Shown here: positions 19,495-39,614 of the stretch, in pieces
Numbering within the stretch: position 1 is the first letter of the stretch
Layout of the letters: each line of letters opens with the position of its first letter
IMG/VR virus record: IMGVR_UViG_3300045988_119069
Source: a virus
Direction: 5' to 3' (one strand)
Length of the DNA stretch: 64,000 bases
Program-made: the position numbers and the translations under genes
The notes under the pieces: generated by a model
The model's input: only the letters and a program-made list of their open reading frames with translations
Databases searched by the model: none
What the model was told of the DNA's origin: nothing

Positions 19495-19567
19495 AGCGGA
19501 GTGGAGCAGCTGGCAGCTCACTTGGCTCATAACCAAGAGGTCGAGGGTTCGAGTCCCTTCTCCGCAA
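19495..19567 (+). tRNA. tRNA with anticodon CAU (Met, fMet or Ile2 type)
   Basis: Hand-folded cloverleaf: acceptor AGCGGAG/CTCCGCA, D arm GAGC-AGCTGGCA-GCTC, anticodon arm CTTGG-CTCATAA-CCAAG, variable AGGTC, T arm GAGGG-TTCGAGT-CCCTT. There is a 1:72 A.A mismatch and no encoded CCA. Confidence 0.8.
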
Positions 19568-32373: not shown

Positions 32374-32505
32374 ATGACTGACATTAAGATTTCCGTGCAT
32401 CCCGTTAGCCATCGGCTCGAATGGCGAGGATGGGGTGATTTCTCGCCCTCCCTTCGAGCCACCGACTACAAATGCCCACACTGTATAATGATTGAATATG
32501 ACTAA
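32374..32505 (+). CDS. TRD-like mini-ORF A (43 aa)
   Basis: MTDIKISVHPVSHRLEWRGWGDFSPSLRATDYKCPHCIMIEYD*. Below the track cutoff. SLRATDYK..IMIEYD resembles the distal TRD segment of C5-MTases. Confidence 0.55.
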   Translation: MTDIKISVHPVSHRLEWRGWGDFSPSLRATDYKCPHCIMIEYD

Positions 32506-32629
32506 TCTTGACTTCTACCAATATCCTCGTGGCAATAACGATGGAGGTAAATTAGACACTGACGTTTGCCCGACCGTGACAATCAACTCGTGGCAGCAAA
32601 ATGTATTTCTGATTGAAGAATATGAATAA
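32498..32629 (+). CDS. TRD-like mini-ORF B (43 aa)
   Basis: MTNLDFYQYPRGNNDGGKLDTDVCPTVTINSWQQNVFLIEEYE*. Its start lies inside the junction TATGACTAA of ORF A. Confidence 0.55.
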   Translation: MTNLDFYQYPRGNNDGGKLDTDVCPTVTINSWQQNVFLIEEYE

Positions 32630-32774
32630 CATCACAATAGACTACCACGCTCATGCTATATCGAGCATTTATTGGAATGTTTCGCCTGACTATAAAAGAC
32701 CTCCGTTAGTAGGTATTAATAGATGTGTCAAGACCGATACTCATGCTCCTGGAATTTTGATAGAATACAAATAA
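32622..32774 (+). CDS. TRD-like mini-ORF C (50 aa)
   Basis: MNNITIDYHAHAISSIYWNVSPDYKRPPLVGINRCVKTDTHAPGILIEYK*. Its start lies inside the junction TATGAATAA of ORF B. Confidence 0.5.
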   Translation: MNNITIDYHAHAISSIYWNVSPDYKRPPLVGINRCVKTDTHAPGILIEYK

Positions 32775-32784
32775 CAGCAACAAT

Positions 32785-34110
32785 ATGATCACAAAACTAA
32801 ATTTCACCGACCGCACCATCAAGAGCTATGCCATCCGCAAGCTCACACCCAAGGAGTGTTTTCGCTTGATGGGCGTTCGCGACAACGTAATCGGCACGAT
32901 GCAGAGCAGCAATGCTCAAGCAGCCGAACGTCTGCCCGACTGGAAGGGCAAGGGTAAACCCGAAGACATGGCTATATCTGCCTCACAGCAGTACAAGCAA
33001 GCTGGAAACAGTATTTGTATAGATGTGTTAGCATATCTATATCAAAATCTTTTCTACCCCGCTCCACCCAAGCCTCGCCCCGGCAAGCAGCTCACTCTCT
33101 TCGACGCCCCCGAAGATACCCTGCCCGCCCTGCCGCCCACCGCCGACAAGAACGAAGAGAAGATATTCCTCACCACGTTCTCCGGCTACGACTCGCAGCT
33201 CATGGCAGCCGACGTGCTACGCGAGTGGCATCCCGACTTTCGATGGACATGCGTAGGATGGAGCGACATCGACAAATACGCCTGTCAGATGCACAACCTC
33301 GTCTTCCCTCAGTTTGCCGACTGCGCCCTGGGCGACATCACCAAGATTGACTGGCACGAGGTGGAAAGCTCGCTCGAAGGCCGCGAAGTGGACCTCTTCA
33401 CCTATTCCTCGCCTTGCCAGGACATCAGTCAGGCGGGCAAGCAAATGGGCTTGCAGGAGGGCAGCGACACCCGAAGCGCACTGCTTTGGCGTGTGGCGGA
33501 TGCCGTGGAGGTGCTTCGCCCGAAGTATCTCTTGCAGGAGAACGTGGCGGCACTGGTAAGCCAGAAGTTCTTGCCAGACTTTCAGAAGTGGCTCGACAAA
33601 CTCTCGTCGCTCGGCTATGTGAGCCGTTGGACGCGACTCAACGCCAAGAACTACGGTGTGCCCCAAAACCGCGACCGTGTGTTCTGCCTCTCCATGCGCC
33701 GAGACGTAGCCTTCGACTATCAGTTTCCCGAACCCTTCGAGCTGCTTACCCGATTGGAAGACGTGCTCGAAGAGGAAGTGTCCGACCGCTATTTCCTCAA
33801 GGACGATGCCGTGAGCAAGTTCCTCAAGGCAAACGACTCTGACAATGCCTTATTCCTTCAATTCGACCTGCCACCGACACATGAGGCGGCAATGTTCCTC
33901 AAGACCGTGCTTCAGATATTCATGGAGCGTCACGACGGATGGGACAAGGGCATTGAGTGGAACGAGAAAGAACTGAGCTATCATCGCCCAGCCATCGCCC
34001 ATCTCTACGAAAAGTTCAAGGAGAACCCAAAGAAACTGGACGTGGAATATTGGCGCGGTTTTTATGGAATGTTTAAGGAGAATATGGAGAGGAAGAAGGA
34101 TGAAAAATAA
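32785..34110 (+). CDS. circularly permuted DNA (cytosine-5)-methyltransferase catalytic core lacking an obvious TRD
   Basis: Motif order: IX RKLTPKECFRLMG, X QYKQAGNSICIDV, Pro-rich linker, I TTFSGYDSQ, IV YSSPCQDISQAG, VI LLQENV, VIII VPQNRDRVF. Confidence 0.85.
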   Translation: MITKLNFTDRTIKSYAIRKLTPKECFRLMGVRDNVIGTMQSSNAQAAERLPDWKGKGKPEDMAISASQQYKQAGNSICIDVLAYLYQNLFYPAPPKPRPGKQLTLFDAPEDTLPALPPTADKNEEKIFLTTFSGYDSQLMAADVLREWHPDFRWTCVGWSDIDKYACQMHNLVFPQFADCALGDITKIDWHEVESSLEGREVDLFTYSSPCQDISQAGKQMGLQEGSDTRSALLWRVADAVEVLRPKYLLQENVAALVSQKFLPDFQKWLDKLSSLGYVSRWTRLNAKNYGVPQNRDRVFCLSMRRDVAFDYQFPEPFELLTRLEDVLEEEVSDRYFLKDDAVSKFLKANDSDNALFLQFDLPPTHEAAMFLKTVLQIFMERHDGWDKGIEWNEKELSYHRPAIAHLYEKFKENPKKLDVEYWRGFYGMFKENMERKKDEK

Positions 34111-34246
34111 ACCGTTTCATGCTATTCAAAATGGGGGGGGTACGATTGCACCTGCAATCACCTCCCACTATTTCAAAGCCGGTGTGCGAGATTTCTTGTT
34201 TGCGCTCGCCATACCGCATTGCTGTTTAATAGTAGAATATGATTGA
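34100..34246 (+). CDS. TRD-like mini-ORF D (48 aa) containing a G8 tract
   Basis: MKNKPFHAIQNGGGTIAPAITSHYFKAGVRDFLFALAIPHCCLIVEYD*. The start overlaps the core stop region (GATGAAAAATAA). G8 at 34133-34140. Confidence 0.55.
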   Translation: MKNKPFHAIQNGGGTIAPAITSHYFKAGVRDFLFALAIPHCCLIVEYD

Positions 34247-34376
34247 AAAGATTGGCAACATTTATTACGACAAGTGGAAGTCCGGTTTTGATGGCAACAT
34301 CTGCGGCACTAAAGGAATATACCCCACCCTAACCTTGTCAACACAAACGGGGGAAGTACTGATTGAATATGCTTAG
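34239..34376 (+). CDS. TRD-like mini-ORF E (45 aa)
   Basis: MIEKIGNIYYDKWKSGFDGNICGTKGIYPTLTLSTQTGEVLIEYA*. Has the PTLT signature. Ends in TAG. Confidence 0.55.
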   Translation: MIEKIGNIYYDKWKSGFDGNICGTKGIYPTLTLSTQTGEVLIEYA

Positions 34377-34521
34377 CAACCCTCGTCCCCTCGTCCTCGG
34401 CTCCTACAGCCCCTCGCAGAACGGCATCATCGTGTCACCACACGGCATAGCCCTGTGCATAGTCGGGGGAGGTAAGGGTCACGACGTGGATAAACCGAAA
34501 ATATTGATAGAGTATGATTAA
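34369..34521 (+). CDS. TRD-like mini-ORF F (50 aa)
   Basis: MLSNPRPLVLGSYSPSQNGIIVSPHGIALCIVGGGKGHDVDKPKILIEYD*. Confidence 0.5.
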   Translation: MLSNPRPLVLGSYSPSQNGIIVSPHGIALCIVGGGKGHDVDKPKILIEYD

Positions 34522-34533
34522 AGACAATCTCCT

Positions 34534-34707
34534 ATGCTACACTTTCGCATAGCAGCCTTCCGAGGCCGTGACCCCGACAATCCGTCCGACCGCAAGCATC
34601 CCTCCAACGGACGCTTCTGTCAGCGAATGGAGATAAACTGGGGGAGTACAACCAACACTCTCACCTCAGTAGGCAAAGACAACATGGTATATCTGGAATA
34701 TGAATAG
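34534..34707 (+). CDS. TRD-like mini-ORF G (57 aa)
   Basis: MLHFRIAAFRGRDPDNPSDRKHPSNGRFCQRMEINWGSTTNTLTSVGKDNMVYLEYE*. Matches the RGR..NP.D....Q.LE....NTLT...KDN TRD pattern. Ends in TAG. Confidence 0.6.
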   Translation: MLHFRIAAFRGRDPDNPSDRKHPSNGRFCQRMEINWGSTTNTLTSVGKDNMVYLEYE

Positions 34708-34849
34708 ACAAATCTCTTTCGTGCAACGCACATCAAAGCTCTGCCCACGTCGGGGGTACTCCACGGCATTGTCCGCACGCTACGACGGATGGGCAGGACT
34801 CTACGACGAGCACGGACAGCACACCATTGTATTGATAGAATATGAATAG
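34700..34849 (+). CDS. TRD-like mini-ORF H (49 aa)
   Basis: MNRQISFVQRTSKLCPRRGYSTALSARYDGWAGLYDEHGQHTIVLIEYE*. Ends in TAG. Confidence 0.5.
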   Translation: MNRQISFVQRTSKLCPRRGYSTALSARYDGWAGLYDEHGQHTIVLIEYE

Positions 34850-34982
34850 GCATACACTAAATTGTCCGTCCGGCATCTGCTGCGTCCTGACATCCCATTA
34901 CGCAAGAGAAGGATGGGCGAATATGGCAAGCAATACAACATCACAATGCAAAGCACCTGCAGTATTGATAGAATATGAATAA
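34842..34982 (+). CDS. TRD-like mini-ORF I (46 aa)
   Basis: MNRHTLNCPSGICCVLTSHYAREGWANMASNTTSQCKAPAVLIEYE*. Confidence 0.5.
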   Translation: MNRHTLNCPSGICCVLTSHYAREGWANMASNTTSQCKAPAVLIEYE

Positions 34983-35002: not shown

Positions 35003-35812
35003 ATGAGTCAAAAAGAAACAAGAAGCATCCCTAAAACGGGAGCAAAAACTTTCGAGAATGAGAAACTATCAGCCTTTCTCCACAGTCTGCCTAAAGGAGC
35101 TATGCTTTATTCGCCTTTGTTAGGCTACATGACGGTGTATGACATCAACGAATCGGGCGTTGTGATGGCCCTTCCTAATCCTGTCGAGAATGAACCATAC
35201 GATTGGCCTTTCCTTTACAACGGACGTATAGCGCGCTACGACAAAGGAGAGTGTATGCTGTTTCTCTCGCATCTTTACCGGAGTTGGAATGTGCTCAAAT
35301 TCCAGCTGGGTGACATCGTGGCAATGGACATCAAGTATAAAGATGGCAACATTCTGACCTACATTGTGATTTTCAGCGAAGTGGAATCTACTGATTATCC
35401 CAAGATAAGGACATACGCCTGCTTATGCAAAAACAGCGACGTGCTTACTTCTTACGCTCTGCTTGATCTTCGCGGTACACGCGAAGAAGAAGAAAGCATC
35501 GAACTGAGATACGCTACGCCTACGGAAGAAAAACTTCTCAATAATGCCGTGGAGAAAATCGGGAAAAGATGGGACAAGGTAAAGCAGCGTCTTGTGTCAT
35601 TAGATTCTGAAGCTCACACTCCCGAGCAGCTGCGCGAGGATTTCAACGCCTTACAGGAAGAATACTATCGCTTGTGTGAACATTGCAAGAAGTTAGAGAA
35701 TGAGCGTAACGATTTCCAAAAGAAAGCAGAGTTAGAGTCAGGTAGAATACAGGAAATATTATACAAGGCTATCGAACAAGTAGGGCAGAGTAAACTACAG
35801 ACCGATGACTGA
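35003..35812 (+). CDS. hypothetical protein with a C-terminal coiled coil
   Basis: 269 aa. Its stop overlaps the next mini-ORF start (ATGACTGA). Confidence 0.55.
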   Translation: MSQKETRSIPKTGAKTFENEKLSAFLHSLPKGAMLYSPLLGYMTVYDINESGVVMALPNPVENEPYDWPFLYNGRIARYDKGECMLFLSHLYRSWNVLKFQLGDIVAMDIKYKDGNILTYIVIFSEVESTDYPKIRTYACLCKNSDVLTSYALLDLRGTREEEESIELRYATPTEEKLLNNAVEKIGKRWDKVKQRLVSLDSEAHTPEQLREDFNALQEEYYRLCEHCKKLENERNDFQKKAELESGRIQEILYKAIEQVGQSKLQTDD

Positions 35813-35984
35813 CAAGTATTACATCGGATGGGTACGCAGCGGCAAGGACGGCAAGGACCTCGTAAAGAGCCGACCGCGCAAGCAGATAGCCAATACCGTG
35901 ACAACCTCACCGCCAGGCTGCTTTGCCGACCCTTGCGACGGGCTTGGCAACACCACACCGCATATAGTATATAAATTTGAATAA
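35805..35984 (+). CDS. TRD-like mini-ORF J (59 aa)
   Basis: MTDKYYIGWVRSGKDGKDLVKSRPRKQIANTVTTSPPGCFADPCDGLGNTTPHIVYKFE*. Confidence 0.5.
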   Translation: MTDKYYIGWVRSGKDGKDLVKSRPRKQIANTVTTSPPGCFADPCDGLGNTTPHIVYKFE

Positions 35985-36777: not shown

Positions 36778-37227
36778 ATGAAAACAGAAGAAAACAAACG
36801 CATGTTGGCTCTTTCCTATATAGTAGCCGACCTGAAGGCAGAGAACATTGAGCTTGAGCAGCGTGTACATCAGTTCATGGACGAATACAACAACGTGGAA
36901 CATCAGTTGCGAGGAATGGAAAAACGCAAGGACGAAGACCCGTCAAGGCAGACGCTCGGCGAGATGCTGAAGATGCGCGACCATTGCGACGAGCTGGAAA
37001 AGGAAAACAGGGCGCTGAAGGGCTTTGCAAAAGTAATTCATTCCTTTATGAAGGACAAGAAAATCTATATGGAAAAAGGAACGTCCTGCGGCTACATACA
37101 AGGCTCCCCTGCTGTGTGTTCTACAGCCTGTCTGGAATGCGACTCTTGCCTGGGTGTAATTGAAGAATGTGGCATAATCTGCCGACAGGTGCTTTACGGT
37201 GTGAAGGTTAGTTCCGTAAAACGATGA
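36778..37227 (+). CDS. coiled-coil plus Cys-rich protein (paralogue 2)
   Basis: 149 aa with the same architecture (CSTACLECDSC...CGIIC). Preceded by AATATGTAATAAAAACTATAAAGACA. Confidence 0.55.
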   Translation: MKTEENKRMLALSYIVADLKAENIELEQRVHQFMDEYNNVEHQLRGMEKRKDEDPSRQTLGEMLKMRDHCDELEKENRALKGFAKVIHSFMKDKKIYMEKGTSCGYIQGSPAVCSTACLECDSCLGVIEECGIICRQVLYGVKVSSVKR

Positions 37228-37388
37228 CCGACACCACACGCCCCCTCGTAGTCGGCATGATGCAGACCCCACCCTTTACGCACATGTTTGATGTGCTGCG
37301 TCGTGTGTATTCTGCCCGAGACCTATGCCCTGCTTGTCTTGTACCTACAGGAGGCAATCAAGAGATAAAAGTTTTAGTGGAACTATAA
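37224..37388 (+). CDS. TRD-like mini-ORF K (54 aa)
   Basis: MTDTTRPLVVGMMQTPPFTHMFDVLRRVYSARDLCPACLVPTGGNQEIKVLVEL*. Compare the M.HhaI-type RIYSTRGIAITLSAYGGG...YLV (from memory). Confidence 0.55.
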   Translation: MTDTTRPLVVGMMQTPPFTHMFDVLRRVYSARDLCPACLVPTGGNQEIKVLVEL

Positions 37389-38438: not shown

Positions 38439-39614
38439 ATGAGTGACTTAAAGATTTTTGCAAAGACCATCGAACCTGAAGTCCAGGAGCAAGTAAGAAA
38501 GATGGCAGAGAGCGAGGCTTACCGCGACTGTAAGATTCGTATTATGCCCGATTGTCATGCCGGAAAGGGATGCACCGTAGGCACCGTGATTGAAACCCGT
38601 GGCAAGGTGGTGCCCAACACAGTAGGTGTGGATATAGGCTGTGGTATGTTGGTATTCAAGTTCGCTGAGAAGGATATTAACCTTTCGCTTCTCGACCGAA
38701 TCATCAATGAGTCGGTGCCGAGCGGATTTGACGTTCACGAAAAGTCCAAGCTAAAAGTTATGAGTCCGCTTACGTCACATCTTTTGCTCGATTTGCACGA
38801 AAGGACACAAGGTTGCTTCGACCCCGACTATATCGGACGCTCGCTTGGCACCCTCGGTGGCGGCAATCACTTCATCGAGCTTGACGAGGACGAGCAGGGC
38901 TGTAAGTATCTTGTGATACATTCGGGCAGTCGCAATCTCGGAGTTAAGGTGTGCAATTTTTTCCAACACTTAGCCAAGAAGAATGTGAATCGTAGTGAGG
39001 AGCGCAAGCGCATCATCGAAGACTTGAAGAAGTACGGCTTAGAGAGGGAGATTAACAATGCGTTGCGTCGTTTGGGCACCGTGCCTCCCGATCTCGCCTA
39101 TCTTGAGGGAGAAGACCTCGATGCCTATAATTTCGCAGCGAACGTCTGTCAGTGTTTTGCCGACGACAACAGATGGGATATAGCAATGACTATAATCCAT
39201 GGGCTTCAATTATCGTTCGTGGATTTCTTTACCACCAGGCATAACTATTTCGACATACACTCAGGCATCATCCGAAAAGGAGCCGTGTGTGCCGAAAATG
39301 GCGAACAGCTTATCATCCCACTTAATATGCGCGACGGTTCGTTGATCTGTCGCGGCAAGGGCAACGACGACTGGCTTCAGTCAGCTCCGCATGGTGCTGG
39401 CAGACTGATGTCGCGCTCGGCGGCAAAGAAGCAGCTCAGCATGGAGGAATACCGCCAGCAAATGCACGACATCTACTCCACATCGGTATGCGAGTCCACC
39501 ATAGACGAAGCACCAATGGCGTATAAGTCGGCAGAGGAGATAGAAGAACTGATAGGCGACACTGTGGATGTGGTGAAGCGCATCAAGCCGATATATAACT
39601 TTAAGGCAAAGTAA
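38439..39614 (+). CDS. rtcB: RtcB-type RNA 3'-phosphate ligase
   Basis: MPDCHAGKG, VGVDIGCGM, GGGNHFIELD, IHSGSRNLG and SAPHGAGR motifs. Confidence 0.9.
   Translation: MSDLKIFAKTIEPEVQEQVRKMAESEAYRDCKIRIMPDCHAGKGCTVGTVIETRGKVVPNTVGVDIGCGMLVFKFAEKDINLSLLDRIINESVPSGFDVHEKSKLKVMSPLTSHLLLDLHERTQGCFDPDYIGRSLGTLGGGNHFIELDEDEQGCKYLVIHSGSRNLGVKVCNFFQHLAKKNVNRSEERKRIIEDLKKYGLEREINNALRRLGTVPPDLAYLEGEDLDAYNFAANVCQCFADDNRWDIAMTIIHGLQLSFVDFFTTRHNYFDIHSGIIRKGAVCAENGEQLIIPLNMRDGSLICRGKGNDDWLQSAPHGAGRLMSRSAAKKQLSMEEYRQQMHDIYSTSVCESTIDEAPMAYKSAEEIEELIGDTVDVVKRIKPIYNFKAK

Follow-up and report, generated by a model that had tools for sequence, protein, structure and literature searches.

An 18-nucleotide stop/start repeat in a gut phage probably separates coupled mini-genes for target-recognition domains of a permuted cytosine methyltransferase

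Why should a phage genome repeat the same 18 nucleotides (nt) between very small open reading frames (ORFs), closing all three frames and restarting in the +1 frame? The question is raised by a 64,000-nt stretch of the IMG/VR virus record IMGVR_UViG_3300045988_119069 (hereafter the window). Our analysis indicates that this repeat is probably the cistron boundary of coupled mini-genes encoding target-recognition domains (TRDs) of about 45-60 amino acids (aa), which would serve a permuted, TRD-less C5-cytosine DNA methyltransferase (C5-MTase) encoded in the middle of the array. Comparison with related phages showed the junctions to be overlapping stop/start boundaries of real, selected mini-genes flanking this enzyme. 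A first-pass annotation of the window had picked out the junctions; the identity of the ORFs as methyltransferase TRD modules and the poly-G tracts within them had escaped it.

A search with YTGATWGAATATGAWTAR, allowing up to three mismatches, gave seven matches in the window, six of them on the + strand within 32488-34982 (at 32488, 32757, 34359, 34504, 34832, and 34965). The expectation for the whole window was 0.58 ± 0.70, and none of 100 shuffles attained seven matches; the motif that the first-pass annotation had described as closing three frames before a +1 restart is thus real and non-random. In the consensus junction, a TAR closes frame 0, frame +1 reads TGA TAG AAT ATG, and frame +2 runs into the TGA of ATATGA. 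Successive ORFs are arranged with the next ATG inside TAT-GAN, 5 nt ahead of the stop, so that they overlap by 8 nt and the reading frame moves to +1. The mini-genes (43-59 codons in the window) stand in tandem, joined by the 18-nt motif, and their products end in hydrophobic-hydrophobic-Glu-Tyr-Glu/Asp-stop, with the window form L/I/M-I/V-E-Y-E/D-stop. Direct reading gave the variants CTGATTGAAGAATATGAATAA for the B/C junction (32609-32629) and ATAGTAGAATATGATTGA for D/E (34229-34246). The G/H junction, earlier given as TTGATAGAATATGAATAG, actually reads TATCTGGAATATGAATAG (34690-34707) and agrees with the consensus in its last 12 nt only, and the A/B junction ATGATTGAATATGACTAA (32488-32505), which had been said to lack a TGA before the ATG, does carry one in the +1 frame. 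The array also reaches past the region covered by that annotation, with modules A-C at 32374-32774 and other members at 35805-35984 and 37224-37388. Its members and the ORFs between them, all on the + strand, are as follows.

Module A, 32374-32505, + strand: 43 aa, family 11, ending IMIEYD-stop, with SPSLRAT as a TL-like motif; the ratio of nonsynonymous to synonymous polymorphism (pN/pS) of the family is 0.17.
Module B, 32498-32629, + strand: 43 aa, family 1, ending LIEEYE-stop, with a CPTVT motif and an 8-nt overlap with C; pN/pS 0.27.
Module C, 32622-32774, + strand: 50 aa, family 6, the last module upstream of the core, ending ILIEYK-stop.
Methyltransferase core, 32785-34110, + strand: 441 aa, circularly permuted C5-cytosine DNA methyltransferase, between modules C and D.
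Module D, 34100-34246, + strand: 48 aa, family 17, its ATG overlapping the core stop (ATGAAAAATAA), ending LIVEYD-stop.
G8 homopolymer, 34133-34140, + strand: within module D, as Gly-Gly-Gly codons.
Module E, 34239-34376, + strand: 45 aa, family 15, with YPTLT, ending VLIEYA-stop.
Module F, 34369-34521, + strand: 50 aa, family 0, ending ILIEYD-stop; the best-supported candidate TRD.
Remnant ORF, 34514-34552, + strand: 12 codons (MIKDNLLCYTFA-stop), a family-5 module whose interior is deleted by comparison with intact family-5 modules.
Module G, 34534-34707, + strand: 57 aa, family 2, with TNTLTSVGKDN, ending VYLEYE-stop.
Module H, 34700-34849, + strand: 49 aa, family 3, ending VLIEYE-stop; the H/I junction is the full consensus.
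Module I, 34842-34982, + strand: 46 aa, family 9, ending VLIEYE-stop; the last of the contiguous array.
269-aa ORF, 35003-35812, + strand: between modules I and J, its own stop overlapping the ATG of J (ATGA).
Module J, 35805-35984, + strand: 59 aa, family 4, with ANTVTT, ending IVYKFE-stop.
Mini-ORF K, 37224-37388, + strand: 54 aa, TRD-like and outlying, 1.2 kb past module J, ending KVLVEL-stop.

The chain of cistrons is unbroken at the remnant ORF, which overlaps the stop of F by 8 nt and contains the ATG of G (19-nt overlap). At the end of module C, the Tyr codon is TAC and there is no embedded ATG; the ATG of the core lies 10 nt downstream.

Conservation of the junction nucleotides was examined in 551 junctions from related phages, 291 of them unique. 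An ATG was present at TATGA in 75% of the unique junctions, within the 8-nt overlap ATGANTAR. Where the overlapping ATG is used, the Tyr codon was TAT in 263 of 263 cases; where no ORF starts there, for instance in the last module ahead of the core, TAC outnumbered TAT by 32 to 3 (background usage of the two codons, 53:47). This use of TAC is consistent with a report that extra AUGs are avoided close to start sites in Bacteroidetes (PMC6847099). Judged from this codon choice, the start codon itself is the selected feature.

Synonymous sites revealed a second layer of constraint. The G+C content of third codon positions (GC3) is near 0.5 in the bodies of the modules and near 0.2 over the final six codons, and among 27 module families, codons -6 to -3 had A or T in 83 of 108 third positions, compared with 49.9 ± 5.0 under synonymous resampling, which bears out the earlier remark that nucleotide identity is higher than the peptide alone would demand. 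A Shine-Dalgarno core was found upstream of none of the 25 long genes in the window, whose 20 upstream nucleotides were 76% A+T against 52% for the window. Such AT-rich start regions lacking a Shine-Dalgarno sequence agree with the initiation signals of Bacteroidetes, namely an A/T-rich start region and an A at -3 (PMC6847099). By these measures, the junction looks like an initiation region of the same kind as all others in this Bacteroidota-type genome, laid over a conserved C-terminal peptide.

A stop in the +1 frame occurred within four codons ahead of the ATG in 141 of 159 junctions (89%), compared with 94.5 ± 5.6 under background codon usage. Given the AT-rich codon pool of the junction, however, such stops were expected in 24.6 ± 1.3 of the 27 families and observed in 24; the pool accounts for them fully, and an independently selected +1 stop signal was rejected. 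Three-frame closure thus results from AT-rich codon choice, and the conservation of the nucleotides from the C-terminal peptide, the embedded ATG, the A/T-rich synonymous sites, and whole-module exchange. An Rfam scan of the array matched no family, a promoter and terminator scan of the array remained at or below shuffle expectation, and the predicted openness of the start regions rose modestly (0.59 versus 0.49 on average).

Termination-reinitiation is the best reading of a junction with these sequence properties. The stop/start overlap associated with translational coupling is present in the 75% of unique junctions that carry the ATG, and the choice between TAT and TAC tracks the downstream start; together with the AT-rich synonymous sites, these observations support the proposal of the first-pass annotation that the RNA may be functional in termination-reinitiation. 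Ribosomes that end one module would reinitiate at the embedded ATG. Overlapping stop and start codons also couple hsdM and hsdS of EcoKI (PMC3510504). As in that pair, downstream initiation would presumably be fed by terminating ribosomes, whereas here the 8-nt overlap is repeated up to about 10 times, and peptide, stop, and start form a single 18-nt unit.

The same annotation had raised +1 recoding or hopping, in which programmed frameshifting or ribosome hopping would fuse modules, or the core and a module, with the 18-mers acting as shift or take-off and landing sites. Successive ORFs do always lie in the +1 frame, the junction nucleotides are highly conserved, and a covalently joined TRD would be like the known enzymes, but we regard this explanation as extremely unlikely. 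The conserved feature is the ATG, which is lost through TAC for TAT exactly where no ORF starts. The last sense codons, GAA or GAT, offer no slippery site, being unable to re-pair in +1 (AAT or ATT), and the +1 frame opens only 1-3 codons ahead of the ATG, with a stop no more than four codons before it in the 89% of junctions given above. Moreover, the spacing from the core stop to the first downstream module varies from -67 to +780 nt, no known recoding element was detected by Rfam, and the junctions are predicted to be open and not structured. The hallmarks of prfB and T4 gene 60 (re-pairing P-site or take-off/landing codons, independence of a start codon, and a stimulatory element) were not found in the junctions.

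What the coupled ORFs encode is indicated by the enzyme among them. The core (32785-34110) matched PF00145 at 3e-48 in two stretches and phrog_116 at 8.6e-65. Direct reading revealed a permuted motif order: IX (RKLTPKECFRLMG) and X (GNSICIDV), followed by I (FSGYDS), IV (SPCQDIS), VI (ENV), and VIII (QNRDRVF). All six of these C5-MTase motifs are therefore present, in the IX-X-first order of M.BssHII. No TRD was found between VIII and IX in the core, and profile region 218-270 of PF00145 is missing between the two stretches of the match. The N-terminus is fixed as MITKLNF and begins MITKLNFTDRTIKSYAIRKLTP in all relatives, whose in-frame stretches upstream of the core contained no ATG, no TRD content, and no in-frame module-core fusion. 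Circularly permuted C5-MTases have their permutation point within the variable region (PMC5944983). The type H permutants M.BssHII, M.Alw26I, M2.Eco31I, M.Esp3I, and M2.BsaI likewise carry IX-X ahead of I-VIII; their TRD remains part of the chain, at the new N-terminus, whereas this core starts just before motif IX with no detectable TRD.

Several lines of evidence place the mini-proteins in this gap. A de-permuted construct, consisting of core residues 113-352, module F, and core residues 1-112 (I-VIII, F, and IX-X), gave a single continuous PF00145 match over profile positions 23-322, compared with two stretches when F was left out. A phmmer search against PDB sequences paired LGSYSPSQNGIIVSPHGIALCIVGGGKG of module F with residues 229-257 of M.HhaI (LGIVGKGGQGERIYSTRGIAITLSAYGGG), which we take to be the TRD segment with the conserved Thr250-Leu251 dipeptide. 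A [TSAV]-[LVI]-[TSRC] motif was present in all 10 window modules, 20-30 residues ahead of the C-terminus. TRD modules of the multispecific Bacillus-phage enzymes are about 40 aa long, and the size of the mini-proteins (43-59 aa) supports their assignment as TRDs because it matches this length.

A profile of family 0, searched with HMMER against 1.8 billion representatives, gave 74 matches, nearly all of 33-111 aa. One related protein, P0275 (162 aa; locus L081, a 1169-nt Logan contig, 433-921), consists of an F-like module that runs into motif IX (IRKLTPHECFRLMGV) and motif X (AGNSIVCDVL); because it fuses such a module to motifs IX-X, it puts the F-like module at the place of a TRD. It ends in ...QLSLFG where the window core has ...QLTLFDAPEDT ahead of motif I, with TRD-like mini-ORFs on both flanks, an arrangement suggesting that it is an intermediate in the evolution of permutation by fusion. 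These alignments and profile matches show that at least one family (family 0) is homologous to canonical TRDs.

The mini-proteins might instead be unrelated small phage proteins, such as anti-restriction or regulatory peptides, that cluster beside the enzyme by chance. Nine of the 10 window families have no significant similarity to a characterised TRD, and none matches Pfam alone. We nevertheless consider chance clustering very unlikely, since module F can be aligned to the TRD of HhaI and closes the gap in the PF00145 match, P0275 joins an F-like module to motifs IX-X, the core flanked by the arrays is in every case one from which precisely this domain is missing, and the module size fits the TRDs of multispecific enzymes.

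Relatives of the locus were collected from IMG/VR (80 loci, core identity 69-94%), and about 25 mini-ORF families were found in them. A count of modules at the DNA level in 75 related gut-phage loci comprised 754 module instances, with 10 modules in the median locus (range 3-14) and 66 family orders among the 75 loci; the same families were found upstream or downstream of the core. The pN/pS values of the 21 families with enough members, without exception, lay between 0.10 and 0.39, indicating purifying selection and therefore translation of each family in its own frame. In a 5.8-billion-protein collection, all 119 word-index matches to module F were 33-87 aa long, and the 120 best of 189 homologues of module G were all 54-91 aa long; no fusion to a methyltransferase occurred among the 119 F matches or the 120 best of 189 G matches. 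Since the homologues are all small and unfused, separate cistrons are the norm and reflect neither decay nor assembly error. Two-module ORFs without a junction were seen in P0241 (E-type and F-type) and P0265 (half F-type with a family-19 tail); they are natural chimeras or assembly artefacts.

These data bear on whether the array is a decayed single multi-TRD gene of the SPR kind, broken by frameshifts, with the junction a linker that has no present function. Phages do have multispecific C5-MTases in which tandem TRDs of about 40 aa share a single polypeptide, as reportedly described in Wilke et al. 1988, and about 20% of the module instances in the relatives are disrupted. Decay is nonetheless scarcely credible in view of the identical stop/ATG geometry in hundreds of divergent phages, the purifying selection on every family in its own frame, and a codon choice that follows the embedded start codon. 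The core is also conserved at 441 aa with its N-terminus MITKLNF, and the disruptions cluster in poly-G tracts and are not random.

The core protein had 7902 homologues, and the relatives come from human-gut metagenomes. Contigs with the exact core protein numbered 117 and reached about 99 kb in length, and labels of Prevotella sp. or Caudoviricetes are attached to some relatives; the array is carried by abundant human-gut phages, which probably infect Prevotella. Contigs with a 100%-identical core revealed a single distinct neighbourhood (L082), which differs from the window in a poly-G tract only. A megablast search of the region against INPHARED phages gave no match and therefore no annotated relative.

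Recombination between modules is evident in these sequences from the mosaic arrays, the chimeric ORFs P0241 and P0265, and the family-5 remnant at 34514-34552. The first-pass annotation had suggested that the direct repeats are recombination points; gain, loss, and reordering of modules did emerge, in the 66 orders among 75 loci, the chimeras, and the remnant, while the 18-mer itself is a candidate crossover site only. A stronger version would have the junction kept mainly as a recombination substrate for duplication, deletion, and exchange of modules between co-infecting phages, with no special role in translation. The diversity of family orders, the occurrence of the same families on either side of the core, the chimeric ORFs, and the deletion remnant in the window all speak for it. 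However, it predicts neither the TAT/TAC switch, nor a common C-terminal peptide across unrelated module bodies, nor AT-rich third positions like those at all other start regions, and the breakpoints of the single deletion examined in the window lie within a module and not at junctions. As the main reason for the repeat it is unlikely; as an additional role it is compatible with cistron boundaries.

An unexpected finding was the presence of poly-G tracts in the modules. G/C runs of at least 7 nt occurred at 0.91/kb inside modules and 0.13/kb outside, a 7-fold difference. G7-G11 tracts lie at fixed positions in many module families (range G6-G11 overall), and 130 module instances in the relatives have tracts of at least 6 G. 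Among instances whose longest G run was at least 6, 53 were ON and 73 OFF, compared with 515 ON and 56 OFF where it was at most 5, and at each tract site the ON and OFF lengths differed by non-multiples of 3. The run in module D is G8 in the window and G10 in L082, an independent assembly, as the sole difference over 7.3 kb; module D is therefore frameshifted in L082. L086 (940x coverage) and L087, with near-identical flanks, have G7 at this tract, so that the same module-D allele appears as G7, G7, G8, and G10 across four assemblies; a second allele was found as G7, G8, and G9, with exact-pattern scans for the module-D tract yielding few loci. Relatives of mini-ORF K read RVYSAKGISPTLHTQGGG with a G7-G11 tract, and the window allele, which diverges in its middle part, lacks such a tract. 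As in phasevarions, a repeat inside the coding sequence sets the frame, and its length varies between near-identical genomes. This pattern of tracts is that of contingency loci and suggests slipped-strand phase variation of single specificities.

Elsewhere in the 64-kb window there is only one G/C run of at least 7 nt, at 1355-1362 (C8 on the coding strand). It lies within a second DNA methyltransferase gene (1211-1810, - strand; phrog_799, 1.3e-67; NPPY motif), which, to judge from this run, may also be phase-variable. In the most divergent clade of relatives (L070-L080), a G7 run is found in the core gene itself (ATGTGGGGGGGCAAGAAAT, locus position about 4588).

The position of the junction relative to shifted frames was also compared. 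Among the G-run-bearing modules D-H of the window, 8 of 10 shifted frames end at -10 to +3 nt from the next ATG, compared with -10 to -123 nt for window modules without runs, where 1 of 10 ends within 10 nt of it. Family-wide, 148 of 302 shifted frames attain the junction, against 119 ± 6 expected. Because this family-wide effect is modest and uneven, frame resetting, as a possible use of the three-frame closure, is put forward as a hypothesis only: ribosomes leaving an OFF module would terminate just a few nucleotides away from the following start codon, and downstream modules would stay expressed.

Taken together, the comparisons lead to the following proposal. Each mini-protein would dock on the core in trans and non-covalently, with its LIEYE strand as the counterpart of the strand ahead of motif IX in M.HhaI, beside the core N-terminus, which begins just ahead of motif IX. 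With many TRDs docking in trans, one catalytic core would then methylate many different sequences, and the phage DNA would be protected against host restriction systems. Keeping the TRDs as their own cistrons would let poly-G tracts switch single specificities, leaving the enzyme and the downstream modules unaffected; such switching of one specificity at a time, with the enzyme still active, is a possible reason for their separation. Extending this, with rather less than even confidence, we suggest that the phages practise combinatorially phase-variable methylation, in which the core would be programmed in trans by up to about 14 TRDs, poly-G tracts would switch each of them, and the junction would act as a frame-reset. 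The resulting 2^n methylation patterns per population would amount to bet-hedging against both Type II (methylation-blocked) and Type IV (methylation-dependent) restriction.

A number of points weigh against this proposal. The direct sequence link to canonical TRDs concerns family 0 only, the other families being assigned by position, size, and a TL-like motif. No mini-ORF alone matched PF00145, and Pfam searches with isolated mini-ORFs were not significant, because these are too short and variable. A single-sequence AlphaFold2 model of the core with module F reached a predicted local distance difference test score (pLDDT) of 34 and was unusable for docking. Conceivably, the C-terminal tail of the core, of about 90 aa and with a helical character taken from a very low-confidence model only, could be a TRD of its own. 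We know of no precedent for a TRD-only subunit of about 45 aa; the beta subunit of M.AquI also holds motifs IX-X. The sequence fits coupling or independent initiation alike, with predicted accessibility at just 0.59 versus 0.49. The tract lengths come from assemblies and not from reads of a single population, and the evidence for translation, trans-assembly, and methylation consists of sequence only.

The window otherwise contains phage genes for a head maturation protease, a primase, tail proteins, and RtcB. The RtcB-type RNA ligase (38439-39614; phrog_1075, 2.4e-124) lies 3.5 kb downstream of the array, and no link between the two was found. RtcB is common in phages; ligation of spliced module RNAs by RtcB was considered and found no support, there being no conserved junction structure. 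A single tRNA gene (19495-19567; Rfam RF00005, 59.9 bits) lies directly upstream of the head maturation protease gene. The 269-aa ORF at 35003-35812 had no PHROG match, and only a sub-threshold Myb-like match in Pfam; in many relatives, J directly follows the preceding module with an 8-nt overlap, without this ORF between them.

The components of the locus are all of known kinds: a C5-MTase, permutation, a split enzyme, multispecific phage enzymes, overlap coupling, and phase-variable methyltransferases. The Bacillus-phage enzymes M.SPRI, M.Phi3TI, M.Rho11sI, and M.H2I likewise combine one catalytic framework with several short, exchangeable tandem TRDs, and their presumed purpose, self-protection against many restriction systems, would be common to both. 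Those enzymes carry all their TRDs contiguously within one ORF and one polypeptide, between motifs VIII and IX, whereas here each module stops and the next starts in +1, as its own cistron and on both sides of a permuted core. The present arrays also differ in their rotating reading frame, up to 14 modules, about 25 families, and poly-G tracts in many of these. M.(phi)BssHII is multispecific too, with TRDs at separated locations.

Split C5-MTases provide a second comparison. M.AquI is divided into an alpha subunit with motifs I-VIII and a beta subunit with the TRD and IX-X; complementation between artificial fragments of M.SssI, M.HhaI, and M.BspRI is a related case. In the window, IX-X is fused to the N-terminus of the catalytic part, and the one detached part is the TRD of about 45 aa, which comes in many alternative versions. 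The detached chains of the window hold a TRD only; the relative P0275 in L081 has the beta-like TRD-IX-X architecture. Phasevarions based on Type III mod or Type I hsdS/hsdM genes (Haemophilus, Neisseria, and Helicobacter) likewise carry homopolymers in methyltransferase genes, with length modulo 3 setting ON or OFF. Here, by contrast, the tracts are in a virus, in single TRD mini-genes of a C5 enzyme and several per array, and combinatorial specificity would replace whole-enzyme on/off switching. No account of an arrangement of this kind was found in the literature on split-TRD C5 enzymes, multispecific methylases of Prevotella phages, and phase-variable phage methylases, in coverage that excluded REBASE and most subscription journals. 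TRD-only subunits of about 45 aa, up to 14 of them, flanking a TRD-less permuted core, with joints of peptide, stop, and start and with poly-G tracts, are apparently an undescribed combination.

If the TRDs do act in trans, the arrays would represent a natural plug-and-play specificity for C5-MTases, built on a module of about 45 residues with a shared docking tail, LIEYE. Such a system would lend itself to the engineering of targeted or multiplexed DNA methylation and would bear on how TRDs fold and dock. In L082 (4326-5221), an ENA assembly of essentially the same phage, public gene calls give one of the 10 array modules (57 aa, module G). With gene callers missing nearly all modules, a layer of phage epigenetic capacity would therefore be invisible in current databases. 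For abundant phages of the human gut, TRDs acting in trans would show how they match hosts whose restriction-modification repertoires are very large, namely through the shuffling of modules and perhaps also through phase variation.

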